Origin: a virus
Lineage: Duplodnaviria > Heunggongvirae > Uroviricota > Caudoviricetes
Virus record (IMG/VR): IMGVR_UViG_2802429240_000010
Length of the DNA stretch: 32,334 nucleotides
Strand: one strand, 5' to 3'
Position 1 is the first letter of the stretch, and each line of letters starts with the position of its first letter. The notes under the pieces are model-generated. The model had not been told where the DNA came from, made no database searches, and saw only the letters and a program-made list of their open reading frames with translations. The position numbers and the translations under genes are program-made. Of this stretch, positions 4,106 to 27,795 are shown piece after piece.

Positions 4106-4525
4106 TCGTGTTTCCGCTTCGCCGGAGCGCCTTTTCGCGCCATGTGATGAGTTCGGTCAGGCTCATGGGATACAGTTCTGATGGCGGCCAGTGAAATATC
4201 ACTGCCACATCCGCCATCAGGTCATCGACCGAGAGATTTTTCGGAAACGTCACTGCACCGAGTTCGGCGACAAAAAACCGACCACCTTACCGGCCAGCGC
4301 CACAAGGTCAGGCAGTTCCAGCGCGGCGACTTCCTGCTCGGTCAGCATCGGTGCCGTCATGCGCGGCAGCACCTTAATCAGTGCATCGACTTCGGAGTTT
4401 GCAACCGCAGCCAGACTGACACCGCGCAGCGCCCCGGCATTGGGTTTCATCAGCGTGACCTGTTCGATAACCTGCTCACCACGTTTGACCGGATTTTCCA
4501 GGGTAATGACATTTTCTTTGTTCAT
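4098..4525 (-). CDS. E+E': Tail assembly chaperone gpE+E', 142 aa, made by a programmed -1 ribosomal frameshift
   Basis: I traced the -1 frame by hand from the slippery site: 85 codons in frame 0 plus 57 codons in frame -1 reach the first stop (TAA, plus-strand tta at 4098-4100). That gives 142 aa, the size of P2 gpE+E', and overlaps the start of T as in P2. Confidence 0.75.
4250..4525 (-). CDS. E: Tail assembly chaperone gpE, 91 aa (zero-frame product)
   Basis: 91-aa ORF directly upstream of T; contains the slippery run; equivalent to P2 gpE. Confidence 0.85.
   Translation of the reverse strand: MNKENVITLENPVKRGEQVIEQVTLMKPNAGALRGVSLAAVANSEVDALIKVLPRMTAPMLTEQEVAALELPDLVALAGKVVGFLSPNSVQ
4271..4277 (-). 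other. Slippery heptamer T-TTT-TTG for the E/E' -1 frameshift
   Basis: Minus-strand GGT TTT TTG (plus-strand caaaaaa at 4271-4277) lies in the gpE frame at codons Gly-Phe-Leu; same heptamer as the P2 E/E' site. Confidence 0.75.
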
Positions 4526-4581
4526 GGTTTTCTCACTTCTGAATCAGGGTTAACCGGTCAGCCTGGCTGACCGTATGAAAA

Positions 4582-5100
4582 TCACAGGCCGATATTACGG
4601 CGGTGTTGCTCCAGCCGGTCGACGCCGTTCACCTTCTCAATCATGTTGATGGTGTCGATTTCGACCAGCTCCTTACCGTCCATCGTCAACTTGAAATAAG
4701 TACAAATCACCGGGAGTTTCGATTCGGTATCCTCTCCCTGTTTACCCTCTCCGGTGTCGACTTCTTTCTGACGCCCACGCATGACCACTTCGACGGCCAC
4801 CGTTTCGCCGGTATCGTCGCGCTGGTAAGAACCAGCAAAACGAATCGGTACGGCATCAGCACTGGTTGCAGCGTAAAGCTCCCAGATAACCGAATCCGGG
4901 AATCCACCGAGCGACCACTCCATTGACAGCGCATCATCATCAAGGCCGAGGTCTACCGGTGCGCTGCCGTTCATTCCCGCACCGCGATAATTTTCGAGCT
5001 TACGGGTCAGTTTTGGCAGCGTGACGGACGTTGCAACGCCCTGATAGCTGTAGCCGTTCAGAAAGACATTCATGTATTTGAGTTTGCGCGGCATTGCCAT
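4582..5100 (-). CDS. FII: Tail tube protein (P2 gpFII-like), 172 aa
   Basis: Translation begins MAMPRKLK and has P2 FII length; sits after the sheath gene. Confidence 0.9.
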   Translation of the reverse strand: MAMPRKLKYMNVFLNGYSYQGVATSVTLPKLTRKLENYRGAGMNGSAPVDLGLDDDALSMEWSLGGFPDSVIWELYAATSADAVPIRFAGSYQRDDTGETVAVEVVMRGRQKEVDTGEGKQGEDTESKLPVICTYFKLTMDGKELVEIDTINMIEKVNGVDRLEQHRRNIGL

Positions 5101-5112
5101 CGGTCAGGCTCC

Positions 5113-6303
5113 TTAATTGCTGTTAACCGAGGTGACCAGATTTGCCAGGTATTTATCGGTAATACGCTGGCGCAGGGTCAGGTTTTCGAGAGGAGGCACC
5201 GGGGTATAGTCGTAGTCGATATACAGTTTTCCGGCCTTGAGGGTTTCCGCATCGTTGGATTCTTCGCTGAACCAGCAGGTCGCATCCACGATATAGCCGT
5301 TTGTTTTCAGCTCACGGAATTTGGCATTGATGCCGTCAACGATGTCGCGAATCAGCGTTGCGGTGATGGGCTTGTCCACCGCCCACATGTGCGCCTCAGC
5401 CATCGTGTCGGCCAGCACCTGCGCGGTGCGGGTGTAGTTTTCAAAGAGGAACAGCGGGTCATCAGAGCAGGTACGGTTACCCCAGAAGCGGAAACCGTCA
5501 CGGCGAATCAGCGTTGTGACGCCTGACTCATTCAGCAGGTCAGCATCGGTGCCGGACTCCTGCAAATCCCAGAATACAGATGCGCTGATGCCGGTAACAC
5601 CGTTCACCCCAACGTTGGACAGTGTTTTATGCCAGCCCTGCTCCTGGTCGATTTTAGCGCGCAGACCCAGCGCACGGGCGGTGGCATACGCGGTGGCGGT
5701 GGTACTGGTGACCGTATCCCATGCGAGGAAATCCGGCCAGATGACCATCAGCTCACGCTGGCTGAAATTCTGGCGGTAGGCTTTCACCTCGGAAATAGTT
5801 TTACAGCCCCATGCGCTGATATACCCGAAAGCGCGCAGCTTCTGACAGACTGATGCCAGTGCAACAGCCACCTCTTTGGTGTCCAGTCCCGGCACGCCGA
5901 GAATACGCGGTTTAACACCGGTTACCGACTCCGCCGCCAGCAGGGCTTTCAGTCCGGTGTACTGACCGTTTTCGTCGGTAGTGCCGATGATATTGGAAAC
6001 GGTCTGCGCGAGTTTCGTTTCCTCGTCGTCGCCGGTGCCGTCTTCCACACGCACGACAACGGTGACCGGTTTTGACTGGTCGGCGATGGCCTGCAACGAT
6101 GCCGCCAGCGTGCCTTTTTTACCGGCCTTTGCAATTGCGCTCTGCACATTGGTAATCAGTACAGGTTTATTGAGGGGGAAGGTTTCCGCATCCGCATCGC
6201 TGGCCGTGCAGACCATGCCGACAATGGCAGTGGATACGGTGGAAATGACGCGGGTGCCGTCGTTAATCTCCAGCACCTGCACGCCGTGATGATAGTCACT
6301 CAT
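5113..6303 (-). CDS. FI: Contractile tail sheath protein (P2 gpFI-like), 396 aa
   Basis: 396 aa as in P2 FI; conserved sheath sequence; precedes FII by 12 bp. Confidence 0.9.
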   Translation of the reverse strand: MSDYHHGVQVLEINDGTRVISTVSTAIVGMVCTASDADAETFPLNKPVLITNVQSAIAKAGKKGTLAASLQAIADQSKPVTVVVRVEDGTGDDEETKLAQTVSNIIGTTDENGQYTGLKALLAAESVTGVKPRILGVPGLDTKEVAVALASVCQKLRAFGYISAWGCKTISEVKAYRQNFSQRELMVIWPDFLAWDTVTSTTATAYATARALGLRAKIDQEQGWHKTLSNVGVNGVTGISASVFWDLQESGTDADLLNESGVTTLIRRDGFRFWGNRTCSDDPLFLFENYTRTAQVLADTMAEAHMWAVDKPITATLIRDIVDGINAKFRELKTNGYIVDATCWFSEESNDAETLKAGKLYIDYDYTPVPPLENLTLRQRITDKYLANLVTSVNSN

Positions 6304-6525
6304 CCGTTTAACTCCGTGGTTAATGGGTGAGTGGTATTTTCATGTGTGCCGGAGATGTCAGGCTATTTGTCCCGGTTGGCTGAGGGATGGCACAATTTAT
6401 TCTTTGTCGCTGATGAGGCGAATTTTTTATAGAGCGTGGACAGGTCAATATCAAAAATCAGCGCCACACGTTGACGTGATTCCCTCGCAGCCAGCAATCG
6501 TCCTGCCTGTTCCCACACAGTCGAT

Positions 6526-6570
6526 TATCTGGAGCACTGGAACTTGTCGAAATTTCCAGTGCTCCAGATA
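6526..6570. promoter_or_regulatory. Perfect 15-bp inverted repeat with 15-nt spacer in the G-FI intergenic region; candidate stem-loop, terminator or protein-binding site
   Basis: tatctggagcactgg (6526-6540) is the exact reverse complement of ccagtgctccagata (6556-6570); it lies just downstream of the G stop; no U-tract follows on either strand. Confidence 0.4.
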
Positions 6571-6579
6571 TTGAATGGC

Positions 6580-7182
6580 CTACGCCTCCGGCAGTTCAGG
6601 CCAGATAACATCCGGCGCTGTGCTGGTATCTGTTGCTGTCACCGCGTCAATGTAATCCAGCACAGCGTTAAGCCGGGTTGTTTCTGTTTGCGTCAGTTTG
6701 CGCCCGGCCTGCAATTTCAACTGAATCAGACTAATGGAAGCCATTGCGGCATCAATCAGCGACTGGCGCTGTGTTTCTGCCGTCTCTACTGCGACGTGAT
6801 GTTGCTCCTCAGTATCTGTCACCCATTTCTCACCATCCCATTTATCGTATGGCGTTAACGGGGCGATAGTGGTTGTATTTTCAGGGTAATCACCCGGAGT
6901 TTTAATTTCTTTTGATTCCCCTGTTTCGGTGCTATAGACAATTTCACCACGATGGTCTGATACATATTCCCATGATTTTAAATCCACAGAACGGCAAATT
7001 GTATAACCAGCCTTATGTGTGCCAGGAGCGTCTAAACAGGAATATGCCGGAATACCGACACCCACAGCAAGATATTCAGTTGATGCAGAAATATATTCCC
7101 GCGTCTCACTGTCATAGTTGTAAACGATAATGTTTCCTTCCTGCACGGCAATAAGTTCATTATTTAATACCGCGTGATTCAT
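6580..7182 (-). CDS. G: Tail fibre assembly protein (P2 gpG / Tfa-like), 200 aa
   Basis: Sits immediately downstream of the tail fibre gene; start shares a base with the H stop; acidic N-terminal half and Tfa-like C-terminal region. Confidence 0.75.
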   Translation of the reverse strand: MNHAVLNNELIAVQEGNIIVYNYDSETREYISASTEYLAVGVGIPAYSCLDAPGTHKAGYTICRSVDLKSWEYVSDHRGEIVYSTETGESKEIKTPGDYPENTTTIAPLTPYDKWDGEKWVTDTEEQHHVAVETAETQRQSLIDAAMASISLIQLKLQAGRKLTQTETTRLNAVLDYIDAVTATDTSTAPDVIWPELPEA

Positions 7183-17328: not shown

Positions 17329-17501
17329 TGTCAGGAGTCCTGAATAGTGATTAGAGGAGTCACATGTCGGCATCAGTTTCCCGACGATGCGCATCCTCCG
17401 CCATCAGTCCCGGATGGCTTATCACTGACACAACAGCACCTTAGCGAATCGCGGGGCGCGACTCAGTAGCCTTGCCGTGTATTCATCACGGCGAGGTATT
17501 C
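17329..17501. promoter_or_regulatory. Divergent late promoter region between O (minus) and P (plus)
   Basis: 173-bp gap between divergently transcribed head operons, as at P2 PO/PP; contains an imperfect direct repeat catcagtttcccg (17371-17383) / catcagtcccgg (17402-17413). I found no exact TGT-N12-ACA Ogr motif. Confidence 0.5.
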
Positions 17502-19274
17502 ATGACCATCACCACAGACACCACTCTTTTGCACGACCCGCGTCGTCAGGCGGCGCTGCTGTACTGGCAGGGGTTTTCCGTGCCGCAGATTGCCGCCATG
17601 TTGCAGATGAAACGCCCGACGGTGCAGAGCTGGAAACAGCGCGACGGCTGGGACAGCGTTGCCCCCATCAGCCGTGTCGAAATGAGTCTGGAAGCGCGGC
17701 TGACCCAGCTCATCATCAAACCGCAGAAAACCGGCGGTGACTTCAAGGAAATTGACCTGCTGGGACGCCAGATTGAACGACTGGCACGGGTCAACCGTTA
17801 CAGTCAGACCGGCAACGAGGCAGACCTTAATCCGAACGTCGCTAACCGCAACAAAGGCGGGCGCCGCAAACCGAAAAAGAATTTTTTCAGCGACGAAGCC
17901 ATCGAAAAGCTGGAGCAGATTTTCTTTGAGCAGTCTTTCGAATATCAGTTGCACTGGTATCGCGCCGGGCTTGAGCACCGCATCCGCGATATCCTGAAAT
18001 CCCGCCAGATTGGCGCAACGTTTTATTTTTCCCGCGAGGCGCTGCTGCGCGCCCTGAAAACCGGCCATAACCAGATTTTTCTGTCGGCCAGTAAAACGCA
18101 GGCGTATGTGTTCCGCGAATACATCATCGCCTTTGCCCGTCTGGTTGACGTTGACCTGACCGGTGACCCGATTGTCCTGGGCAATAACGGCGCAAAACTG
18201 ATTTTTCTCGGCACCAACTCCAACACCGCGCAGAGCCATAACGGCGACCTGTACGTCGATGAGATTTTCTGGATCCCGAATTTTCAGGTACTGCGTAAGG
18301 TGGCATCAGGTATGGCCTCACAGAGTCACCTGCGTTCGACCTATTTCTCCACCCCGTCCACGCTGGCGCACGACGCCTACCCGTTCTGGTCGGGTGAACT
18401 GTTTAACCGGGGACGCGCCAGCGCCGCTGAACGCGTGGAAATCGACGTCAGTCATAACGCACTTGCCGGAGGTCTTCTCTGTGCGGACGGCCAGTGGCGG
18501 CAGATTGTCACCATTGAGGACGCCCTGAAAGGCGGCTGCACGCTGTTCGACATTGAGCAGCTCAAACGCGAAAATAGCGCCGACGATTTTAAAAACCTGT
18601 TCATGTGTGAATTTGTTGACGACAAGGCGTCGGTGTTCCCGTTCGAGGAGCTGCAACGCTGCATGGTCGACACGCTGGAAGAATGGGAAGACTATGCGCC
18701 GTTTGTCGCGAATCCGTTCGGCTCCCGCCCGGTATGGATTGGTTACGACCCGTCACACCGTGGCGACAGCGCCGGATGCGTGGTACTGGCACCGCCGGTG
18801 GTGGCCGGTGGCAAATTCAGAATACTTGAGCGTCACCAGTGGAAAGGCATGGACTTTGCCACTCAGGCGGAATCCATCCGCAAACTCACCGAAAAATACA
18901 ACGTCGAATACATCGGTATTGATGCCACCGGCCTCGGTGTCGGCGTGTTCCAGCTCGTGCGCTCGTTCTATCCCGCCGCGCGCGACATCCGCTACACGCC
19001 GGAAATGAAAACCGCAATGGTGCTCAAGGCAAAAGACGTTATCCGTCGTGGCTGTCTGGAATATGACGTCAGCGCCACCGACATCACCAGCTCGTTTATG
19101 GCTATCCGCAAGACCATGACCAGCAGCGGACGCAGCGCCACCTATGAGGCCAGCCGCAGCGAGGAAGCCAGCCACGCCGACCTCGCCTGGGCGACCATGC
19201 ACGCCCTGTTAAATGAGCCACTCACCGCCGGTATCAGCACCCCGCTGACATCCACCATTCTGGAGTTTTACTGA
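17502..19274 (+). CDS. P: Terminase large (ATPase) subunit (P2 gpP-like), 590 aa
   Basis: From ATG 17502 (MTITTDTTLLHDPRRQ) the protein is 590 aa as in P2 gpP; the track ORF begins 10 codons earlier. Confidence 0.9.
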   Translation: MTITTDTTLLHDPRRQAALLYWQGFSVPQIAAMLQMKRPTVQSWKQRDGWDSVAPISRVEMSLEARLTQLIIKPQKTGGDFKEIDLLGRQIERLARVNRYSQTGNEADLNPNVANRNKGGRRKPKKNFFSDEAIEKLEQIFFEQSFEYQLHWYRAGLEHRIRDILKSRQIGATFYFSREALLRALKTGHNQIFLSASKTQAYVFREYIIAFARLVDVDLTGDPIVLGNNGAKLIFLGTNSNTAQSHNGDLYVDEIFWIPNFQVLRKVASGMASQSHLRSTYFSTPSTLAHDAYPFWSGELFNRGRASAAERVEIDVSHNALAGGLLCADGQWRQIVTIEDALKGGCTLFDIEQLKRENSADDFKNLFMCEFVDDKASVFPFEELQRCMVDTLEEWEDYAPFVANPFGSRPVWIGYDPSHRGDSAGCVVLAPPVVAGGKFRILERHQWKGMDFATQAESIRKLTEKYNVEYIGIDATGLGVGVFQLVRSFYPAARDIRYTPEMKTAMVLKAKDVIRRGCLEYDVSATDITSSFMAIRKTMTSSGRSATYEASRSEEASHADLAWATMHALLNEPLTAGISTPLTSTILEFY

Positions 19275-20308
19275 TGAGCAAGAAAAAAGGGAAAACACCG
19301 CAACCTGCGGCAAAAACAATGACCGCCAGCGCCCCGAAAATGGAGGCATTCACCTTTGGTGAGCCGGTGCCGGTACTCGACCGCCGTGACATTCTGGATT
19401 ACGTCGAGTGCATCAGTAACGGCAGATGGTATGAGCCACCGGTCAGCTTTACCGGTCTGGCAAAAAGCCTGCGTGCTGCCGTGCATCACAGCTCACCGAT
19501 TTACGTCAAACGTAATATTCTGGCCTCGACATTTATCCCGCATCCGTGGCTTTCCCAGCAGGATTTCAGCCGCTTTGTGCTGGATTTTCTGGTGTTCGGT
19601 AATGCGTTTCTGGAAAAGCGTTACAGCACCACCGGTAAGGTCATCAGACTGGAAACCTCACCGGCAAAATATACCCGCCGTGGCGTGGAGGAGGATGTTT
19701 ACTGGTGGGTGCCGTCCTTCAACGAGCCGACACCTTTCGCGCCCGGCTCCGTGTTTCACCTGCTGGAGCCGGATATTAATCAGGAGCTGTACGGTCTGCC
19801 GGAATATCTCAGCGCCCTTAACTCTGCGTGGCTGAATGAATCAGCCACGCTGTTCCGCCGCAAGTATTATGAAAACGGCGCACATGCCGGATACATCATG
19901 TATGTCACCGATGCCGTGCAGGATCGCAACGATATCGAAATGCTCCGCGAAAACATGGTCAAGTCAAAAGGCCGCAACAACTTTAAAAACCTGTTTCTCT
20001 ATGCACCGCAGGGAAAGCCAGACGGCATCAAAATTATCCCGCTCAGTGAAGTGGCAACGAAGGACGATTTTTTTAATATCAAAAAAGCCAGCTCCGCTGA
20101 CCTGCTGGACGCGCACCGCATCCCCTTTCAGTTGATGGGTGGCAAGCCGGAGAACGTCGGGTCGCTGGGTGATATTGAGAAAGTGGCAAAGGTCTTTGTC
20201 CGCAATGAGCTTATCCCGTTACAGGACAGGATTCGGGAAATAAACGGCTGGCTCGGTCAGGAGGTCATCCGCTTTAAAAACTACTCACTGGACACTGACA
20301 ACGGCTGA
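19274..20308 (+). CDS. Q: Portal protein (P2 gpQ-like), 344 aa
   Basis: 344 aa as in P2 gpQ; start overlaps the P stop (ATGA); the cos site follows. Confidence 0.9.
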   Translation: MSKKKGKTPQPAAKTMTASAPKMEAFTFGEPVPVLDRRDILDYVECISNGRWYEPPVSFTGLAKSLRAAVHHSSPIYVKRNILASTFIPHPWLSQQDFSRFVLDFLVFGNAFLEKRYSTTGKVIRLETSPAKYTRRGVEEDVYWWVPSFNEPTPFAPGSVFHLLEPDINQELYGLPEYLSALNSAWLNESATLFRRKYYENGAHAGYIMYVTDAVQDRNDIEMLRENMVKSKGRNNFKNLFLYAPQGKPDGIKIIPLSEVATKDDFFNIKKASSADLLDAHRIPFQLMGGKPENVGSLGDIEKVAKVFVRNELIPLQDRIREINGWLGQEVIRFKNYSLDTDNG

Positions 20309-20313
20309 ACATC

Positions 20314-20335
20314 GCCGCCTGCGGGCGGCTTTTTT
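20314..20335 (+). terminator. Rho-independent terminator downstream of Q
   Basis: gccgcc-tgcg-ggcggc hairpin (6-bp GC stem) followed by a run of 6 T, starting 6 nt after the Q stop. Confidence 0.6.
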
Positions 20336-20477
20336 ACACCCCGTCATCACGCCCTCACACACTCACCACCGCACAAAACAGCCCGCAGACACACCAACGC
20401 CCCGGCGCACAATCTAAACGCCATTACGACGTGCTGAGACGCTGAAAAAATAAAATCAGCACCACCGCCAGCGCGCA

Positions 20478-20496
20478 GTGCTTTCCCCGCCTCGCC
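20478..20496. other. cos: P2-type cos site (19-nt cohesive end sequence)
   Basis: gtgctttccccgcctcgcc is the exact reverse complement of the P2 cohesive end GGCGAGGCGGGGAAAGCAC as I recall it; it lies just past Q, as in P2. Confidence 0.85.
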
Positions 20497-20547
20497 CGCC
20501 CGCTTCGTGGGGCGGTTTTAATGCAGGTGCATTTAAGCCTCTAACCC

Positions 20548-20576
20548 TTGCATGTAAAGGACTTGTGGGATTAAAT
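20548..20576 (+). promoter_or_regulatory. Candidate sigma70 promoter for the DUF262-HEPN cargo operon
   Basis: TTGCAT (20548-20553), 17-bp spacer, TTAAAT (20571-20576); AAGGAG ribosome-binding site at 20627-20632, 7 nt before ATG 20640. Confidence 0.4.
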
Positions 20577-20639
20577 CAGTATAAAACTACGCATGCAAAC
20601 AAATGCAACTTATTGCAAATAAGCATAAGGAGAAAACAA

Positions 20640-21764
20640 ATGGCAAGAGTCCCAAGACAACCTGAACAAGTGATCACAGAAGAAGATAAAGTTGACCTGG
20701 ATAACCAGATCAAATCCATGCAAAAAATAACGGATCACCAAATTAGAGAGTTTCCTGTAAGTGTCATTGTTGACAAATTTCAGAAAGGATTAGAAACCGA
20801 CCAAGCAGAACTATACATACCTGATTATCAAAGGGAATTTGTTTGGAGCAATGTTCAAAAATCAAGATTCATTGAATCTCTTTTGCTAAATATTCCTATC
20901 CCATATGTATTTGTCGCCGATATCGGAAATGACGATGGGCGATTGGAAATCGTTGATGGTAGCCAGAGGATTAGAACACTTTATCATTTCCTAAATGATA
21001 AATTTACCCTTACTGGATTAAAAAAGCTAACTTCAGCCAACGGATTCAAATACTCTGACTTCACACCTGCACGTAAGCTTAGATTCGATAGAAAAACTAT
21101 TCGAATGATTGAACTCACTGAATTATGTGATGAAGAAGCAAGAAGGGAGATTTTCGATCGATTGAATACAGGTGGAATAAAACTCACGACAATGGAGCAA
21201 CGACAGGGCAGTAATGATGGGCCTTTTCTTGATGTTGTTAATAGACTATCAGAGTTTCCATTGTTTAGGGAAATATGCCCTCTAAACGATGCTAGGATCA
21301 GTCGTGGAGAATATCCAGAATTGGTTCTTAGATATTTTGCCTATTGTGATAACTATCTTAACTTTGAAAAAAGTGTTGATACTTTCTTAACCCAATATCT
21401 TGACCAACGCAATGAGTCATTTAGTCCTGAGCAAGAAGAAAAACTAACTGCACAATTTCAAGATATGTGTGAATTTGTCAAAACATATTTCCCCTATGGT
21501 TTCAGAAAGAATGCAACGGCAAACACTGTACCAAGAATTCGCTTTGAAGCGTTAGCTGTCGGTTCCACTTTGGCCTTAAAAACTGACTCTAACATAATAC
21601 CAACACCGGTAGAGGAATGGTTAAACTCAGAAGAGTTTATTAAACATACAAGATCTGATGCATCAAATTCAAAACCTAAAGTAAAAGCACGTATTGAATA
21701 TGTAAGAGACAAACTTTTAGGTGTGCAGACCGAAGATACTGTTCTAGATGATAGTGAGGAGTAA
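20640..21764 (+). CDS. DUF262 / ParB-like nuclease-domain protein (GmrSD-like N-terminal domain, no HNH/DUF1524 domain), 374 aa
   Basis: Strong ribosome-binding site and ATG at 20640. Contains DUF262 hallmark motifs IPDYQREFVW and EIVDGSQRIRT. The ~170-aa C-terminal part has no HNH motif I can see. The gene is AT-rich compared with the phage backbone. The track ORF start at 20478 lies inside cos and is an artefact. Confidence 0.75.
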   Translation: MARVPRQPEQVITEEDKVDLDNQIKSMQKITDHQIREFPVSVIVDKFQKGLETDQAELYIPDYQREFVWSNVQKSRFIESLLLNIPIPYVFVADIGNDDGRLEIVDGSQRIRTLYHFLNDKFTLTGLKKLTSANGFKYSDFTPARKLRFDRKTIRMIELTELCDEEARREIFDRLNTGGIKLTTMEQRQGSNDGPFLDVVNRLSEFPLFREICPLNDARISRGEYPELVLRYFAYCDNYLNFEKSVDTFLTQYLDQRNESFSPEQEEKLTAQFQDMCEFVKTYFPYGFRKNATANTVPRIRFEALAVGSTLALKTDSNIIPTPVEEWLNSEEFIKHTRSDASNSKPKVKARIEYVRDKLLGVQTEDTVLDDSEE

Positions 21765-21770
21765 CTATCC

Positions 21771-22502
21771 GTGGTCATCATGAACAGCAAAATTTTATTT
21801 TCTGAAAGAAAAGAAGATATAGAAAAATATTTTGATTTTGTTAAATTCATTATTGATGAGAGACCAACATTCTCGTACAAAGATCGCATAGCAGGCGAAT
21901 GTAAACACCGCGAAATTGATATCGAAATGACGCATATCCTAAAAGCCAATGCGTTTATTATATTATATAACTTAATTGAAGCCACTATATCTAATGCTAT
22001 TGAAGATATACATAATGAACTTAATTCGTGTGATGATCTTTGTGTCGATAAAATTTGCGAAAGTTTAACAAAGCTTGCCTTAAAAAAATTAGACCATCAT
22101 ATGGTGAGTGACATGGATTTTTCACAAGGTGATATAGCAAAACTAGTTCTAAAAAAATGGCTAGAGGAACACAAAAAACAAGTTCAAGCAGATAAAAACC
22201 CCCTATTTTCTGGAAATGTTGACGCACAGAAAATTAGGGATGTTGCTAGTATCTATGGTTTTTCCTCTCAAACAGATCGTTCAAAAACTCATAATGGTGG
22301 AAATTTAGTAAACATAAAAAAAGCAAGAAATGCATTGGCGCATGGTTCAGAATCCTTTTTAAACAAGGGTCAAGAAACGTCTATTGACAACCTTGAACTT
22401 CTTAAAAATGAAGTTTTCCATTACCTAGAAGAAATACTAGAAAACATACAAAAATACCTTGATGATCGCTTATACATACGATCATCAAGACTACAGGCTT
22501 AA
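21771..22502 (+). CDS. Putative HEPN-domain protein (Rx4H motif; MAE_28990/Swt1-like or Abi-like), ~243 aa
   Basis: Starts 7 nt after the upstream stop. GTG at 21771 has a GAGGAG ribosome-binding site 10 nt upstream; the alternative ATG at 21780 has none. Predicted alpha-helical protein with C-terminal KKARNALAHG (Rx4H). AT-rich. Confidence 0.6.
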   Translation: MVIMNSKILFSERKEDIEKYFDFVKFIIDERPTFSYKDRIAGECKHREIDIEMTHILKANAFIILYNLIEATISNAIEDIHNELNSCDDLCVDKICESLTKLALKKLDHHMVSDMDFSQGDIAKLVLKKWLEEHKKQVQADKNPLFSGNVDAQKIRDVASIYGFSSQTDRSKTHNGGNLVNIKKARNALAHGSESFLNKGQETSIDNLELLKNEVFHYLEEILENIQKYLDDRLYIRSSRLQA

Positions 22503-23536
22503 ACTATATTGTGCTCTTTTAGGTGAGTTATAATTGACTCACCTATAACCTCACCTAGTTTTACCGGTACAGCATTACCAATCATCCTACCAACATTCTT
22601 TATAGATACTTTCTCATTGGGTGCAGTAAAAACGTAATCCTTTGGAAACGTTTGTAACAATGCAGCCTCTCTCAGAGAAATTGCACGATTTTGCTCGGGA
22701 TGACCAAATCTGCCATTTCCAAAACCATAACATAGCGTAGTAATTGTAGGACTTGGTTTATCCCAATCCATACGTCCATATACACTAGCATAACCTTGCC
22801 CACTTTTCTTTATGTGGCATGATGCAATCAACTCTACTGGCCAGTCTCGCCATGTCCCTCCTGGTTTAGAGCAAGCAATACGTTTTAGATTTATATCACT
22901 TAATTTACTTGCTTTATGTAAAGGATCAACAGGATCCGTTTGACCAGCCTTTAATGGAGGAAGTCCGCCAATGCATTCTTTTACCGTCACCGCCTTTTCT
23001 ACTTTTGGTTTTACAAATGAAAGCGGCGCAAATTTAGATGCCAATAATACATGCCTAACTCTATTTTGCGGAACACCATAATCTACACATTCAACCTTTC
23101 CGGCCCAGACATGATAACCCAATGCCTCTAAACTATTATAGAAGTCACTATAAACAGAATGCTTCGTTACATCAGGTACATTTTCCATTGTAACGATCTC
23201 TGGATTAACCCCTCGAATTAAACGTTCAAATTCATAAAGAAGAGGCCACTTTTTATCATTTTTCTTATCGCGCCCTTGCGTATACCTTGAAAAAGGTTGG
23301 CACGGCGCACAACCAGCCAACACCCTTACCTGCGCACCTTCAAAAAGATCGTTAAGCTCGTCTTTGGTCACCAGAGAAATATCTTTTTCAATAAAAAGCG
23401 CACTGTTATTACTTTCATAAGCAGCCCGGCATGCACTCTCTATATCAATACCAGCGACTACATCTAATCCGGCTTGCTTTAAGCCATGAGTAAGCCCGCC
23501 AGCACCACAAAAAAGATCAACAACTTTTACCGCCAT
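22499..23536 (-). CDS. DNA (cytosine-5)-methyltransferase, 345 aa
   Basis: Motif I DLFCGAGG, motif IV GCAPCQPFS (catalytic Pro-Cys), motif VI ENV, motif VIII QNRVR, motif X GNAVPV. ATG at 23536 has a GGAGA ribosome-binding site; an upstream in-frame ATG at 23626 is possible. Its stop overlaps the stop of the convergent HEPN gene. Confidence 0.85.
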   Translation of the reverse strand: MAVKVVDLFCGAGGLTHGLKQAGLDVVAGIDIESACRAAYESNNSALFIEKDISLVTKDELNDLFEGAQVRVLAGCAPCQPFSRYTQGRDKKNDKKWPLLYEFERLIRGVNPEIVTMENVPDVTKHSVYSDFYNSLEALGYHVWAGKVECVDYGVPQNRVRHVLLASKFAPLSFVKPKVEKAVTVKECIGGLPPLKAGQTDPVDPLHKASKLSDINLKRIACSKPGGTWRDWPVELIASCHIKKSGQGYASVYGRMDWDKPSPTITTLCYGFGNGRFGHPEQNRAISLREAALLQTFPKDYVFTAPNEKVSIKNVGRMIGNAVPVKLGEVIGESIITHLKEHNIV

Positions 23537-23841
23537 TTTAGTCTCCGATTCATCCTCCGACAGAGTATAACTGTATCCTTCAAAAATCTCGAGCGTTTTA
23601 GCAAACAACAAGAATGCTCCCCACATCCAGCCCTAAGGCCTTATCCTAGCCTAGCTTTACTACAATTAATCCAACAATTTCTGTAAATACATCCATTCCC
23701 TCTCGTAACCGAATACTCTCAACATCCTTTCCACTAATGTACTGTTTTAAATGACTTTAACTTTACATAACTAACGCCTCGCTTCGCTCGTTGTTCAACC
23801 CCGCCAGCCCTGAAAACAAGTTTCACGACTGGCGGCGTTCT

Positions 23842-24048
23842 CTATCGTCTGCGTGGTGGTGGCGTAACTCTTGATTGACCGATATGATTAAACCGCCCGT
23901 AATTATCCCGGACTATTTCGGCACACCCGACCAGCTCATCGGGCGTCAGATTTTCGTTGACCATAATCCGCTGTAAACGCTGAACAATGGCCATCAGCTT
24001 GATATTTTTAGTTTTATGGTGCGGTATCTCGCCTGGTATTCTGTGCAT
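23842..24048 (-). CDS. Hypothetical small protein, 68 aa
   Basis: ATG at 24048 shares a base with the stop of the upstream ASCH gene, suggesting translational coupling; no recognisable motif. Confidence 0.4.
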   Translation of the reverse strand: MHRIPGEIPHHKTKNIKLMAIVQRLQRIMVNENLTPDELVGCAEIVRDNYGRFNHIGQSRVTPPPRRR

Positions 24049-24500
24049 TATCCAAGCCACCCGTTTTGCTTTGCATGCTCCATCTGTTCATCTGAATAAT
24101 TCCATATCCCATCCGTGGCAACCATTGCCCCACCAGACATCCCTGTCTCTGGTTCATACATAACAGCAAGGCCAAGCTGATGCATAATTTCATGATTAAT
24201 TCTGAATACCAGACCACGTTCACTAAGTTCTTTCCAGTTCACAATCTTATATGCGCCCGTATTAAGCAGCTCAATACTTAGCAAGACATAATCTTCCAGC
24301 CAGTCTGACAGGTCAGTAACATCTGTTATCCGGGCTTCAACCTTGCGCCCCGTAAACACACCCTGCACCCATTCATGCAAAATCAACGTGTCCCCGCGCT
24401 CATAATTACGGTCATTTTTCCGAAACTCTGCGCGTTTCTTTCCTTCCAGTACAAGGTCGAAATATTTTGCGTGCAGCTTTACCTCGTGAATTTTTGCCAT
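24048..24500 (-). CDS. ASCH-domain protein with a C-terminal extension carrying an HExxH motif, 150 aa
   Basis: ATG at 24500 shares a base with the A stop. N-terminus has the ASCH GxKxxExR signature (EGKKRAEFR). C-terminal tail contains HEIMH. Sits where P2 has orf91, directly after A. Confidence 0.65.
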   Translation of the reverse strand: MAKIHEVKLHAKYFDLVLEGKKRAEFRKNDRNYERGDTLILHEWVQGVFTGRKVEARITDVTDLSDWLEDYVLLSIELLNTGAYKIVNWKELSERGLVFRINHEIMHQLGLAVMYEPETGMSGGAMVATDGIWNYSDEQMEHAKQNGWLG

Positions 24501-26791
24501 TATGTCCACTCCATTACTGTTGAGAATCCCGGCCACTCATCAGCGACCGGATACGTGAATTTTTTCCCGTCATAATTTACAGTCGCGCCACGCGCCAGCG
24601 CCTCAAGCTCCCATCGCTGAGGCCTGATACCGTTCTGAGCAAGGTCAACGCGGATACGGGTGATTTGCATTCGTTCCGACCGGGTCAGTCTGGCCGATGG
24701 TGCAATTTCATGTGGTTTTAACGGGCTTCCGTTTCTTTGCTGACGACTTGGCGTTCTCCGACCGTGTTTTAATGCACCCCTGAGCGCCCTCACGACCTCC
24801 GGGTCATTCCATTCGATAACACCGTCATCAACCAGATTAAGCACTGCTGCAACGTGCTCAGAAGGTGTGGGAGCCGGTAACGAAGTATCACTACCGGTGA
24901 GCTTTCCACAGTTATTGACAGGACTCCGAGGCGCGGCGATGCCGCTTTTTAAAGTCAAAGGCTCAACGACCGGAACTTTCGGCACAATGCGCCAGTCCGT
25001 CGTTCTGGTGATATGAATATGACGCGCGCCGAGATGCGGCGCGTAAATGCCGACCACTCTCTCGACTTCTTCCTCGTACTCGTTAACGTCATCCGACGGG
25101 CTACGGGCAACCCTGACAGTCTGACAATCGCGCGGGACATTTGCCCCACCCTGCGCGCTGATATACAACGCAAAATCACCACTGTCTGCGGCAGCGCGAG
25201 CAGCCTCGACGCGTTCGTCAAACTCATCAGCAATGCTGACGCCGCTAGGCAATTTGCGTAGTTCACGGTAAGCCCCCATTGTCGGCAGGCCAACCGTTTT
25301 AAATTGTGGAATACGCCACGTTGACGCCCATGCGGTAACAGCCGCTGCAGTATCTTTCAGCGGCCTGCCGGTATCGTTATCGAGCTGACCATCCAGTGCA
25401 TAGCCGTCGATGTTTTTTGAGATGTATTTCGCGATATACCCCGCAGCACCGCCCCGGTTAAGATGTTTTGCCTGAAAACGGTTTCGCGCGGCTCCTCTTT
25501 CGTCGCCATCCTCTTTGAGCGCATAGCGACGCATGATTTCGATAATCTGGTTACGCTGGCGTGGATTACAAAAAAGCATCATATGCCAGTGCGGCGTTCC
25601 GTCGTGGTGTGGCTCGACGACTCGCAAACCGTAGACCTGTAAATCATTATCCTTGAATGCCGTGCGCATCAGGCTCCAGATACGGCAAAGATAACGCTGC
25701 GCATCCTTTGGATTAAATGCCTCATCGTTCCAGCCGTGATTAAGCTGAACGGTTTTACTTTCGCCTTTTCCGACCTGACGTGTCGGGTGATACTTTGACG
25801 GCGCGGTCAGCGTGATAAACATCCCCACATCACCCTCTGCGGCGGCGTAACGCTCAATACCGGCAATGGTGTTCATCAGCTCCATCCGGCGAATTTCAGG
25901 ATTAGAAATACTGCCCATCACCTTACTGATAAGGTCGATGCGTTCGCCGGTTTCCCTGTTTTCGAGGTCACACGATTTAAGAAATTCCAGATTTGCCTGG
26001 CGGCGTGCACGTACATCACGAATGGCATGTTTACTGGCATAAGGAGAACGGTCTTTATTCACCGCCCCGACAGCAATCAGTAACGCCTCATGCCAGCGCA
26101 TACGCTGGCCTTTAAGCTGATGAGTCCACCACTCATCGTTAAACAGACGGGCAATGGCAGAATATGCCCGCCTCGTGGTCATCTGTCCTTTACGGTATTT
26201 TTTCCAGTAGAGCGGGGAAATATTGAAAGCACGTGCAGCGCCAGCAACATGACCATAGAGGTGAGCCTGCGCCTCATCCGTAAACAGCGATTCTTTTTCG
26301 CCATGCGCATCCACCCAGGCATCGCTGAGTTCCTCATACATCATGAAAAGCTGCGATGAGATACGGACGGCAAATTTTTTCAGCTCCTTGTCATTCATTC
26401 CCGGCAGGCGTGCATACTGGTCGCGCTCTGCCAGAAACAGCAACGACGCGTCGGTGTTCATTTCATGGCGCTGATTCACGCGCTCAATGCGCGGCCATAA
26501 ACGACGCTGAAAAGTGGATGTGAGGAAATAAAACCCGTGTAGCGGACTTTTATTGCGCCGGATGTAGTCATAGCGTGAAGTAAACAGCGAGCGCAAAAAG
26601 TAAGGCAGGCGGTTAATCGTGGATAAAACACCTTGCACCTGACGCATCTCGTCACGTGTAAGGGTTCTTTCGCGCCCGACGGCCTCGCGTGGCGCGTTCC
26701 ATGCATAAGCACCGGTAAACGCCTTACCGGTGCCTGCAGCAAATGCTGACGGAGGTACGCAGGTGTATTGCTCCTGGAAAGAATGACTCAT
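24500..26791 (-). CDS. A: Replication initiation endonuclease (P2 gpA-like, rolling-circle), 763 aa
   Basis: Near full-length match to P2 gpA as I recall it (VPPSAFAAGTGK...FTYPVADEWPGFSTVMEWT); size ~761 aa. Confidence 0.9.
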   Translation of the reverse strand: MSHSFQEQYTCVPPSAFAAGTGKAFTGAYAWNAPREAVGRERTLTRDEMRQVQGVLSTINRLPYFLRSLFTSRYDYIRRNKSPLHGFYFLTSTFQRRLWPRIERVNQRHEMNTDASLLFLAERDQYARLPGMNDKELKKFAVRISSQLFMMYEELSDAWVDAHGEKESLFTDEAQAHLYGHVAGAARAFNISPLYWKKYRKGQMTTRRAYSAIARLFNDEWWTHQLKGQRMRWHEALLIAVGAVNKDRSPYASKHAIRDVRARRQANLEFLKSCDLENRETGERIDLISKVMGSISNPEIRRMELMNTIAGIERYAAAEGDVGMFITLTAPSKYHPTRQVGKGESKTVQLNHGWNDEAFNPKDAQRYLCRIWSLMRTAFKDNDLQVYGLRVVEPHHDGTPHWHMMLFCNPRQRNQIIEIMRRYALKEDGDERGAARNRFQAKHLNRGGAAGYIAKYISKNIDGYALDGQLDNDTGRPLKDTAAAVTAWASTWRIPQFKTVGLPTMGAYRELRKLPSGVSIADEFDERVEAARAAADSGDFALYISAQGGANVPRDCQTVRVARSPSDDVNEYEEEVERVVGIYAPHLGARHIHITRTTDWRIVPKVPVVEPLTLKSGIAAPRSPVNNCGKLTGSDTSLPAPTPSEHVAAVLNLVDDGVIEWNDPEVVRALRGALKHGRRTPSRQQRNGSPLKPHEIAPSARLTRSERMQITRIRVDLAQNGIRPQRWELEALARGATVNYDGKKFTYPVADEWPGFSTVMEWT

Positions 26792-27795
26792 TCACATACA
26801 CCGGCATAGACACTACTGCAAACTGACTTATCATTCACCGAAGCCAGCAAATCAAACTGTGCCCCGCCACGCGTGGTCATCGCCCAGTCACGATAAGACT
26901 CAATTCCGTAAGCATCGACAGTAATAATATCAATGCGGCGTTCCGCACGACGCGGGTCATGAGTTGACGGGAAGAAAGTAGAATTTCCGCGTCTGGAGCA
27001 TGCGGCGACAAGTCGCTCCCATTCCGCAACACGCTTAACCTCTTCCGGCCAGCGACTAAAAATTTCAGCTAATTCAGACTTTCTGGCGTGGATGCAGGGC
27101 ATACAACCGACACGACTGCATCCCTGCTGGTATAACGGATTAGGTTTAATTCCATGACGTCTTGCAAATGCAAATACCTCCTCATGCGTCCAGTTCAGAA
27201 TAGGACGGTATACATGGAGCCCGGGCGTATTGTCCGCATCCTCTTCCCAGGCAGGCAGACCCGCGCGCGCAGGAGACTCCTGAGCGCGAACCCCCTGCCA
27301 GCTAATTACCTCATCAAACTCATTAAGCGCAGGTAACACGACCTGAGTACGTACTGGCTCATGTTTAAGGTCAAAAGTGCAAAATCTGGCTTTAGTGGAA
27401 GGAAATCGCCCTTTCCACATGCACAAATCAAGAAATGGGATACCAGTAGGCTTGAGAATTTCCAGCGCACAATTGATGCGCTCTGCCGCTTCCCCCGGAG
27501 ACATTCCGCACTCTTCAACCAGAGAAACAGGCCATTTCTCAGCAATAAACTTGCGCTTACCTTCAATCTGTCGAGAGAAGTCAGCTTTAACCCGTTTAAC
27601 CGGCCCGAGTCGGTTCTCCAGATAATCGAGATACTCCATTGTCTGCGGATGCTCATGCCCGGTGTCTGCAAAAACCGGCAAAAAATGCACACCGCTTTCA
27701 ATACCAACAAGCCATTGAGCAAGGCTATCCTTTCCGCCAGAAACAGAAATAATATTGATAGAGCTTTCAGCTCGGCAGCGGGTATCAACTATCAT
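26788..27795 (-). CDS. PAPS-reductase / DndC-like PP-loop family protein, 335 aa
   Basis: PP-loop motif SGGKDS near the N-terminus (ISVSGGKDSLAQW); C-terminal cysteine cluster CSRVGCMPC; stop overlaps the A start (ATGA). Confidence 0.8.
   Translation of the reverse strand: MIVDTRCRAESSINIISVSGGKDSLAQWLVGIESGVHFLPVFADTGHEHPQTMEYLDYLENRLGPVKRVKADFSRQIEGKRKFIAEKWPVSLVEECGMSPGEAAERINCALEILKPTGIPFLDLCMWKGRFPSTKARFCTFDLKHEPVRTQVVLPALNEFDEVISWQGVRAQESPARAGLPAWEEDADNTPGLHVYRPILNWTHEEVFAFARRHGIKPNPLYQQGCSRVGCMPCIHARKSELAEIFSRWPEEVKRVAEWERLVAACSRRGNSTFFPSTHDPRRAERRIDIITVDAYGIESYRDWAMTTRGGAQFDLLASVNDKSVCSSVYAGVCE

Follow-up and report, generated by a model that had tools for sequence, protein, structure and literature searches.

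A Methylase-Linked DUF262-HEPN Gene Pair in the old/tin Hotspot of a P2-Like Prophage Is a Distant Relative of the PD-T4-2 Defense System

The stretch of DNA analyzed here (hereafter the window) comprises 32,334 nucleotides (nt) of IMG/VR virus record IMGVR_UViG_2802429240_000010 (Caudoviricetes) and is a P2-like (Peduovirus-type) prophage of Escherichia coli. Between its portal and replication genes lie two co-directional genes (20640-22502), which encode a DUF262/ParB-like protein (gene 1) and a HEPN protein (gene 2), and a convergent third gene for a C5 cytosine DNA methyltransferase. The pair formed by gene 1 and gene 2 is a distant, methylase-linked, HEPN-swapped relative of PD-T4-2, a validated phage-defense pair of E. 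coli, and it belongs to a kind that is already known rather than undescribed. We hold it highly probable that the pair is an anti-phage module of the PD-T4-2 kind, and see an even chance that the full statement is correct, namely that the three genes constitute a defense cassette in which the methylase has a self-marking role.

The DUF262-HEPN Gene Pair

Gene 1 matches the Pfam GmrSD_N/DUF262 profile at 7e-29, and the Pfam profile search gave no match to DUF1524 at E ≤ 1. A preliminary description of this DNA, prepared from the letters alone, had read gene 1 as a DUF262 protein lacking the DUF1524/HNH half on the basis of the motifs IPDYQREFVW and DGSQR, and both the Pfam result and the sequence bear this out. 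Across 26 homologs, residues D106, G107, S108, Q109, and R110 are invariant, as are the motifs PDYQRE, VPRIRFE, and HTRSDASNS-PK, the latter two of which are C-terminal. The C-terminal half of the protein is all-helical, and in a structural comparison the fold of gene 1 resembles those of BrxU, SspE, DndI, and ParB-N. Gene 1 is predicted to be a nucleoside triphosphatase (NTPase) and a DNA sensor. The strong ribosome-binding site noticed earlier is also present, as an AAGGAG ahead of the ATG start (Table 1). Separately, Krischvirus and Phi1- and RB49-like lytic phages (T-even-like) encode a short DUF262-only homolog with 38% identity to gene 1 residues 61-189; this protein could be a decoy or counter-defense factor, or unrelated.

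Gene 2 matches the Pfam family HEPN_MAE_28990 (PF18737) at 1e-19, with 71.8 bits against a cut-off of 26.8 and coverage of profile positions 9-211 of 211, and it also matches HEPN_RiboL-PSP just above threshold (29.3 bits against a cut-off of 28.4). The HEPN fold has confident support, and within the RNxLAHG motif the residues R183, N184, L186, A187, H188, and G189 of the 240-aa form are invariant among 27 homologs, down to 22% identity. The HEPN-like assignment made previously from the Rx4H motif (KARNALAH) is confirmed by the Pfam match, the fold, and the invariance of the motif. HEPN domains are typically dimeric RNases; gene 2 is predicted to be the RNase effector, and the conservation of RNxLAHG over this range of identity makes it look active. 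The analysis establishes that gene 1 is ParB-like, retains its nucleotide-binding motif, and has no nuclease domain, and that the catalytic dyad of the HEPN protein is intact.

Two starts are available for gene 2. The GTG at 21771 leaves a gap of 6 nt after the gene 1 stop and has a GAGGAG 9 nt upstream, while the ATG at 21780, which is the choice of PGAP in an identical E. coli cassette, leaves a gap of 15 nt. The pair of linked, co-directional genes reported in the preliminary description stands, with both reading frames where it had placed them; the gap, given there as 7 nt, is 6 nt. The linkage is tight, and the two genes are probably translationally coupled. In a scan of one genome per species, a relative was found in 323 genomes, and the best 80 loci were analyzed: a DUF262 gene lies directly 5' of the HEPN gene in 79 of these 80, and in all evaluable viral loci. 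In both sets the usual arrangement is abutting genes or a 4-nt overlap. The pairwise identity of one protein tracks that of the other (r = 0.89, Spearman 0.77; 69 non-redundant cassettes).

In RefSeq, E. coli proteins identical to these two are named ‘DUF262 domain-containing protein’ and ‘MAE_28990/MAE_18760 family HEPN-like nuclease,’ and PHROGs places both in the class ‘unknown function.’ Neither gene of this copy has a match in NCBIfam, although PGAP names both, and no sequence relatives of either were found in the PDB.

Relationship to PD-T4-2

The preliminary description knew of no named, characterized system with this split architecture. PD-T4-2, a two-gene system of E. coli ECOR65 listed as ‘DUF262, HEPN,’ is one (Vassallo et al., 2022, Nat Microbiol). 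It protects against T4 when carried on a low-copy plasmid, and its deletion from native ECOR65 restores T4 plaquing; a construct with the substitution H127A in the Rx4H motif of PD-T4-2B is listed, and the four point mutants tested are stated to lose protection (Vassallo et al., 2022). HHpred analysis of PD-T4-2B returned HEPN_RiboL-PSP (97.8%) and HEPN_MAE_28990 (96.9%). Reviews place PD-T4-2 both among DUF262 systems without DUF1524 and among HEPN systems. A search of the available literature found no paper characterizing the mechanism of PD-T4-2, or of the trio of ParB-like, methylase, and MAE_28990-type HEPN genes.

We located PD-T4-2 in E. coli genomes by means of a 50-nt lambda-red homology arm given in the primer table of that paper, and 17 of 5426 complete genomes carry it. 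The copy of strain 2009C-3133 is flanked by psu and the integrase gene of a P4-like satellite and consists of a DUF262 protein of 364 amino acids (aa) and a HEPN protein of 167 aa, with no methylase. Searched with PADLOC, the located A protein scores 538 bits and the B protein up to 213 bits, with three PD-T4-2_B models. The match of gene 1 to PD-T4-2_A (PDLC04027; 4.3e-34, 116 bits, profile 56-356 of 363) is distant when set against the 538 bits of the authentic protein. Gene 1 and PD-T4-2A are homologous, with 30% identity over 207 aa (E 2e-25) and collinearity to the C-terminus. For gene 2 and PD-T4-2B, BLASTP gives 28% identity over 116 aa around RNxxAH (E 0.003), and both proteins pass the Pfam RiboL-PSP-HEPN threshold; hhalign with the single PD-T4-2B sequence against the window family was uninformative.

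The two pairs are alike in that their co-directional genes abut in A-then-B order, in that the DUF262 protein lacks DUF1524, has about 365-375 aa, and is followed by a small RNxxAH HEPN protein, and in their location in P2/P4-family hotspots of E. coli. They differ in that the B proteins belong to different HEPN families of the same Pfam neighborhood (167 aa in PD-T4-2B, 240 aa in gene 2), and in that PD-T4-2 occupies the psu-int slot of a P4-like satellite without a methylase, whereas the window family is usually methylase-linked. By the PADLOC definition, the window pair is not a member of PD-T4-2. The preliminary description had allowed that the pair might match an already characterized system; such a match exists in architecture and remote homology, and not at the strict family level of PADLOC models and profile-profile comparison.

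A further DUF262-HEPN pair was observed in the Klebsiella phage ST16-OXA48phi5.4 (Peduoviridae), where a DUF262 protein (407 aa; NsnA 2e-61) and a RiboL-PSP-HEPN protein (220 aa) are encoded at 3860-5763, among tail genes and without a methylase. PADLOC PD-T4-2_B gives no match to this pair either, and DUF262-HEPN pairs therefore form a wider superfamily than the models of defense finders cover.

The Linked C5 Methyltransferase

The gene convergent with gene 2 matches Pfam DNA_methylase (PF00145) at 6e-55 and the dcm superfamily model TIGR00675 with 130 bits, and all catalytic motifs are there (FCGAGG, PCQ, ENV, QNRVR, and GNAVP). Its best PADLOC match is DrmMII; the subfamily model of E. coli Dcm gives only 21 bits against a cut-off of 710. 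In the preliminary description this methyltransferase was treated as an optional neighbor. Its linkage and co-divergence with the pair instead make it a conserved third member of the cassette, and the coordinates of the unit should run on to 23536, taking in the methylase.

Several lines of evidence speak for this linkage. The loci of HEPN homologs at 61, 56, 39, and 34% identity each hold the full trio, which in the two distant, metagenomic ones is a co-directional methylase-DUF262-HEPN operon. A close homolog of the window methylase is adjacent in 42 of the 80 genome loci (convergent in 31, upstream and co-directional in 8, downstream in 1, and with a degraded partner in 2); of the remainder, 19 are intact pairs with no C5 methylase within 8 kb, 4 lie at a contig edge, and 15 are degenerate, such that the methylase accompanies the pair in about two-thirds of intact chromosomal loci. 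Among viruses, 57 loci were found in IMG/VR, and the methylase is present in all 52 whose contigs allow judgment. Of the 12 records of the GenBank phage collection that contain a methylase homolog of at least 58% identity, 11 also hold the pair, and these phages include Peduovirus P24B2 and nine Moraxella phages. Across 69 non-redundant trios, methylase identities co-diverge with those of DUF262 (r = 0.81) and HEPN (r = 0.77). The methylase is the most conserved member of the trio (58% mean identity), and its target-recognition region is as conserved as the catalytic core. A 4-nt overlap of stop codons identical to that of the window occurs in 21 of 56 convergent cassettes.

The pair-only loci include one with an N6/N4 methylase downstream (1 of 19) and one whose DUF262 has 97% identity to that of a relative with the full trio, which suggests recent methylase loss. 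In the P2-like Escherichia phage PhiR44_1, the Q-A hotspot (4004-7052) holds a Dcm-type methylase and a gene annotated as paraMORC3, and not DUF262 and HEPN; one and the same ‘M’ gene seems to pair with interchangeable partner modules.

Two further features of the methylase gene were observed. A hairpin with a 14-bp stem and a T-run on the minus strand lies at 22456-22491, inside the 3' end of gene 2; it would terminate the convergent methylase gene, which shows how tightly the cassette is packed. In P24B2-type methylases, the tract at the KPGG codons is G8 in P24B2 and G6 in E. coli 2015C-4136CT1, both of which are frameshifted, and G7, with an intact frame, in three otherwise identical records including two E. 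coli genomes. This change is either slipped-strand on/off switching or homopolymer sequencing error. The frameshifts in P24B2 and 2015C-4136CT1 are not firm evidence that the methylase is dispensable, because they amount to a single homopolymer difference and intact copies exist. At the corresponding point the window methylase reads CCAGGAGGGACA (22839-22864), without a G tract.

Distribution and Alleles

At 50% identity, the HEPN family falls into about 1,810 clusters (E ≤ 1e-3), or 653 at E ≤ 1e-30; among the matches listed, these are stand-alone proteins of about 180-265 aa. The family is commonest in cyanobacteria and also occurs in Bacteroidota, Proteobacteria, Firmicutes, and others. In at least 25 of the IMG/VR loci, the context is P2-like and the cassette is found between Q and A. 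This slot is filled by three diverged alleles of the trio in E. coli P2-like prophages; among complete E. coli genomes, 4 carry the window type, 3 the P24B2 type, and 9 the third type, a total of 16 of 5426, which makes the trio about as common as PD-T4-2. A recurrent arrangement, mostly in Microcoleus/Oscillatoriales and Tychonema (11 loci), has an intact HEPN gene after a DUF262 fragment of only about 180 aa, with no methylase; these loci are either a conserved truncated variant or decaying cassettes.

Genomic Setting

The cassette lies within a block of atypical base composition (20500-24500; 33-45% guanine-cytosine (GC) content, as against 52-64% in the flanks), located between Q/cos and the replication gene A. 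The GC fraction falls from 0.55 to 0.38 at about 20500, and the genes for cox, repressor C, and integrase are further right of A. The corresponding slot holds tin and old in P2 and many other defense systems in P2-like prophages (Vassallo et al., 2022). The Q/cos and A flanks, along with the atypical GC, support the earlier placement of the pair in the P2 old/tin hotspot. The features are listed in Table 1.

Table 1. Coordinates of the cassette, its sequence motifs, and flanking features in the window.
Feature	Position	Strand or direction	Description
Terminase P	17472-19274	rightward	
Portal Q	19274-20308	rightward	followed by terminator and cos region
Terminator-like hairpin and T-run	20496-20515	+	left edge of low-GC cargo, after Q/cos; from sequence scan and GC drop
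Shine-Dalgarno AAGGAG	20627-20632	+	7 nt 5' of gene 1 ATG; read from sequence
Gene 1	20640-21764	+	ATG start; 374 aa; DUF262/ParB-like; helical C-terminal domain; no nuclease domain
DGSQR	20955-20969	+	in gene 1; DGxQR nucleotide-binding motif of the ParB/DUF262 fold
Gene 2	21771-22502	+	HEPN, MAE_28990 family; 243 aa from GTG 21771 or 240 aa from ATG 21780
RNALAH	22326-22343	+	in gene 2; Rx4H catalytic motif of HEPN RNases
C5 cytosine DNA methyltransferase	22499-23536	-	345 aa; convergent with gene 2; stop codons overlap at 22499-22502
PCQ	23297-23305	-	catalytic motif of the methylase
Promoter-like site TCGAGA-17-TATACT and GGAG Shine-Dalgarno	23564-23592	-	5' of methylase ATG 23536; consensus match only
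72-aa open reading frame	23842-24060	-	phrog_11386
ASCH/DUF3850+DUF7415 protein	24048-24536	-	phrog_1812; also phrog_986 ‘RNA-binding protein’
Replication endonuclease A	24500-26791	leftward (-)	
PAPS-reductase-domain protein	26788-27795	-	335 aa; PF01507 1e-35; phrog_424 ‘moron/auxiliary metabolic gene’

The ASCH protein and the 72-aa open reading frame lie inside the low-GC block, between the methylase and gene A. Neither is found in the P24B2-type cassette, whose methylase gene directly adjoins A, and the two are probably cargo distinct from the cassette. The PAPS-reductase gene shares 4 nt with the beginning of gene A and is absent at that position in the cargo-bearing E. coli 5735 prophage, which is otherwise nearly identical, and this position looks like a second variable slot.

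Proposed Mechanism and Alternative Explanations

We propose that 20640-23536 would constitute an anti-phage cassette of three genes, carried as cargo in the P2 old/tin hotspot. Gene 1, as a ParB-like DUF262 NTPase with a helical DNA-binding domain, would sense infection or invading DNA, and the HEPN RNase encoded by gene 2 would dimerize and, when licensed by gene 1, cleave RNA and arrest the infected cell (abortive infection). The linked C5-methyltransferase would methylate prophage and host DNA at one conserved target, so that the sensor reads resident DNA as self. Such a cassette would follow the logic of restriction-modification (R-M), with an ‘R’ arm that fires an RNase in place of cutting DNA. 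The coupling of sensor to effector, the choice of RNA as the target, and the self-marking by the methylase are what we infer from these components. The sensor-and-RNase abortive infection model put forward in the preliminary description remains the most plausible reading of the pair. Immunity in the specific R-M-like form, with the ParB-like NTPase reading the absence of a methyl self-mark and switching on the HEPN RNase, is a tentative possibility.

A number of observations weigh against this proposal. The promoter-like element earlier ascribed to the pair was not recovered: there is no sigma-70 consensus site between the hairpin at 20496-20515 and 20640, a consensus scan and by-eye inspection of 20516-20640 gave nothing convincing as a promoter for the pair, and the promoter-like sites across the whole region are as many as expected by chance (10 found, 11.0 ± 3.3 expected from shuffled sequence). 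Gene 2 has no PADLOC match at E ≤ 1, including the three PD-T4-2_B models, and hhalign of the gene 2 family against a 24-sequence PD-T4-2B alignment is weak (50% probability, E 1.6e-4, 86 columns). Experimental support comes solely from PD-T4-2, a distant relative of the window family that works without a methylase and is not toxic in K-12. With respect to the methylase, the Spearman coefficients are only 0.40 with DUF262 and 0.39 with HEPN (69 trios). All 19 pair-only loci, which are cyanobacterial and lie among housekeeping genes, are intact in the absence of an adjacent C5 methylase, and the pair is therefore not strictly dependent on a linked one. Furthermore, the DUF262 domains of GmrSD and BrxU sense modified, and not unmodified, DNA, which would imply a different role for a methylase.

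Some of these points would be accommodated if the slot held two independent cargo functions, a modification-free DUF262-HEPN defense pair and a solitary phage methyltransferase that guards phage DNA from host restriction or regulates genes, with their linkage the result of co-transfer. The methylase-free activity of PD-T4-2 and the 19 pair-only loci are consistent with this, as are the methylase's own promoter-like site and opposite orientation, and the presence in PhiR44_1 of a 58%-identity methylase in the same P2 slot beside paraMORC3. The last arrangement, however, also has the look of an ‘R’ arm swapped next to an unchanged ‘M,’ in keeping with R-M-like logic. Independent functions are rather unlikely given that the linkage extends across phyla, to non-phage chromosomal contexts, and to two gene orders, including a co-directional operon, and given the 52 of 52 viral loci, the co-divergence, and the conserved target-recognition region. 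A Type IV-like activity, in which DUF262 recognizes modified phage DNA (e.g., the hydroxymethylcytosine (hmC) or glucosyl-hmC of T-even phages) and fires the HEPN RNase, would draw on the structural similarity of gene 1 to BrxU, SspE, and DndI, on the modified-DNA sensing role that reviews give to DUF262, and on the selection of PD-T4-2 on T4, as systems from that selection generally also protect against T2 and T6. The methylase mark would then be ignored by the sensor, or would keep the sensor on self DNA as in SspE with phosphorothioate. However, a cytosine methylase would defeat the purpose of a neighboring modified-cytosine sensor unless specificity were very narrow, and gene 1 is without the nuclease half used by all characterized Type IV DUF262 enzymes; we regard this explanation as unlikely.

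The trio architecture would also fit a PrrC-like guard, in which a first-line complex of the R-M kind, made up of the ParB-like protein and the methylase, keeps the HEPN RNase inactive until a phage anti-restriction factor disables that complex and releases the RNase as a second line. Such a role was proposed for HEPN genes in R-M operons, with PrrC-EcoprrI as precedent (Anantharaman et al., 2013), but first-line restriction is unsupported, with no DNA-cleaving domain detectable in gene 1, and the persistence of the pair, and the function of PD-T4-2, without a methylase make this arrangement improbable. Least probable is an addiction (toxin-antitoxin) module, with a HEPN toxin and a DUF262 antitoxin that stabilize the prophage or the cassette rather than defend against phages: the validated relative is a phage-defense system, the cassette resides in a dedicated defense hotspot, and neither RNA antitoxin-like repeats, nor an Rfam element, nor an MNT-type partner was found. 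An RNA antitoxin or structured RNA, as in AbiF-type HEPN systems, was considered and rejected, as no match to Rfam was obtained at E ≤ 1, and 20250-24600 holds no meaningful tandem repeat.

Significance

DUF262-HEPN pairs are a validated but mechanistically blank type of defense, for which PD-T4-2 provides a phenotype and one point mutant. The branch represented in the window is larger and older than PD-T4-2, with about 1,800 clusters at 50% identity that range from cyanobacteria to Enterobacterales and P2-like phages, and it offers a clue that PD-T4-2 does not: a cytosine methylase inherited along with the pair, whose target-recognition region is conserved. If this methylase defines what the sensor takes for self, the cassette would provide a three-gene model for ParB-like NTPases that read DNA state and signal to an RNase. 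An R-M-like system with an RNA-directed arm, if true, would be a mechanistic class of its own, combining self/non-self discrimination by methylation with abortive infection, and would explain why phage copies always have the methylase while some chromosomal copies do not. Because current PADLOC models miss the cassette, surveys of P2 hotspots that use PADLOC would under-count it.

Comparison With Known Defense Systems

Menshen (NsnABC) supplies the best PADLOC match of gene 1 (NsnA; 5.4e-56, 188.5 bits, profile 34-377 of 385). Gene 1 shares with NsnA the ParB-DUF262 and helical DNA-binding domains and a proposed sensor role with an RNase effector. The NsnB ABC-ATPase and the NsnC inPIN-effector of Menshen, in contrast, are absent in the window, where there is no ATPase gene between Q and A, the effector is a stand-alone HEPN protein, and the third gene is a C5 methyltransferase. 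Membership in Menshen was rejected, given the lack of NsnB and NsnC and given that PD-T4-2A matches NsnA equally well (2e-58); for the latter reason, the NsnA match marks a protein clade and not Menshen itself.

With GmrSD, BrxU, and SspE, gene 1 shares the N-terminal DUF262 domain and its DGxQR motif. According to reviews, DUF262 domains of the SspE/GmrSD type hydrolyze nucleoside triphosphates, sense the state of DNA, and switch on the effector attached to them. These proteins carry a DUF1524 His-Me nuclease, whereas gene 1 does not, and has 374 aa as compared with 560-580 for SspE and BrxU. The effector of the window is instead a separate protein with an RNase fold, and the cassette is methylase-linked and would not be directed against modified DNA.

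As in PrrC-EcoprrI, a HEPN RNase is linked in the window trio to a DNA-modification module, and an abortive, RNA-directed second arm is proposed for both. PrrC, however, fuses an ABC ATPase to HEPN and is encoded in a Type Ic hsdMSR locus, whereas the HEPN partners in the window trio are a ParB-like NTPase and one C5 methylase, and none of the three genes encodes a recognized restriction endonuclease. Comparison with classical Type II R-M leads to a similar distinction: the methyltransferase of the window looks active from its motifs, but its partners have a HEPN fold and a ParB-like NTPase fold, and no recognized DNase fold stands in place of the endonuclease.

The closest precedent for the complete gene set is the operon type of ParB, methylase, and MAE_28990 HEPN genes catalogued by comparative genomics (Anantharaman, Makarova, Burroughs, Koonin and Aravind, 2013, Biol Direct 8:15, Table 1), in a study that also suggested that HEPN genes within R-M loci act in a multi-pronged, PrrC-like manner. 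Gene 2 clearly belongs to PF18737, and the window trio has the ParB-like and methylase partners of this type. The 2013 entry carries no system name, experiment, or link to the P2 hotspot, and ParB was seen there as a DNase, whereas current work on DUF262 favors an NTPase/sensor role. With the gene set catalogued in 2013 and the architecture known from PD-T4-2, the window holds a variant of a known, validated kind, with a linked methylase and a swapped HEPN gene.

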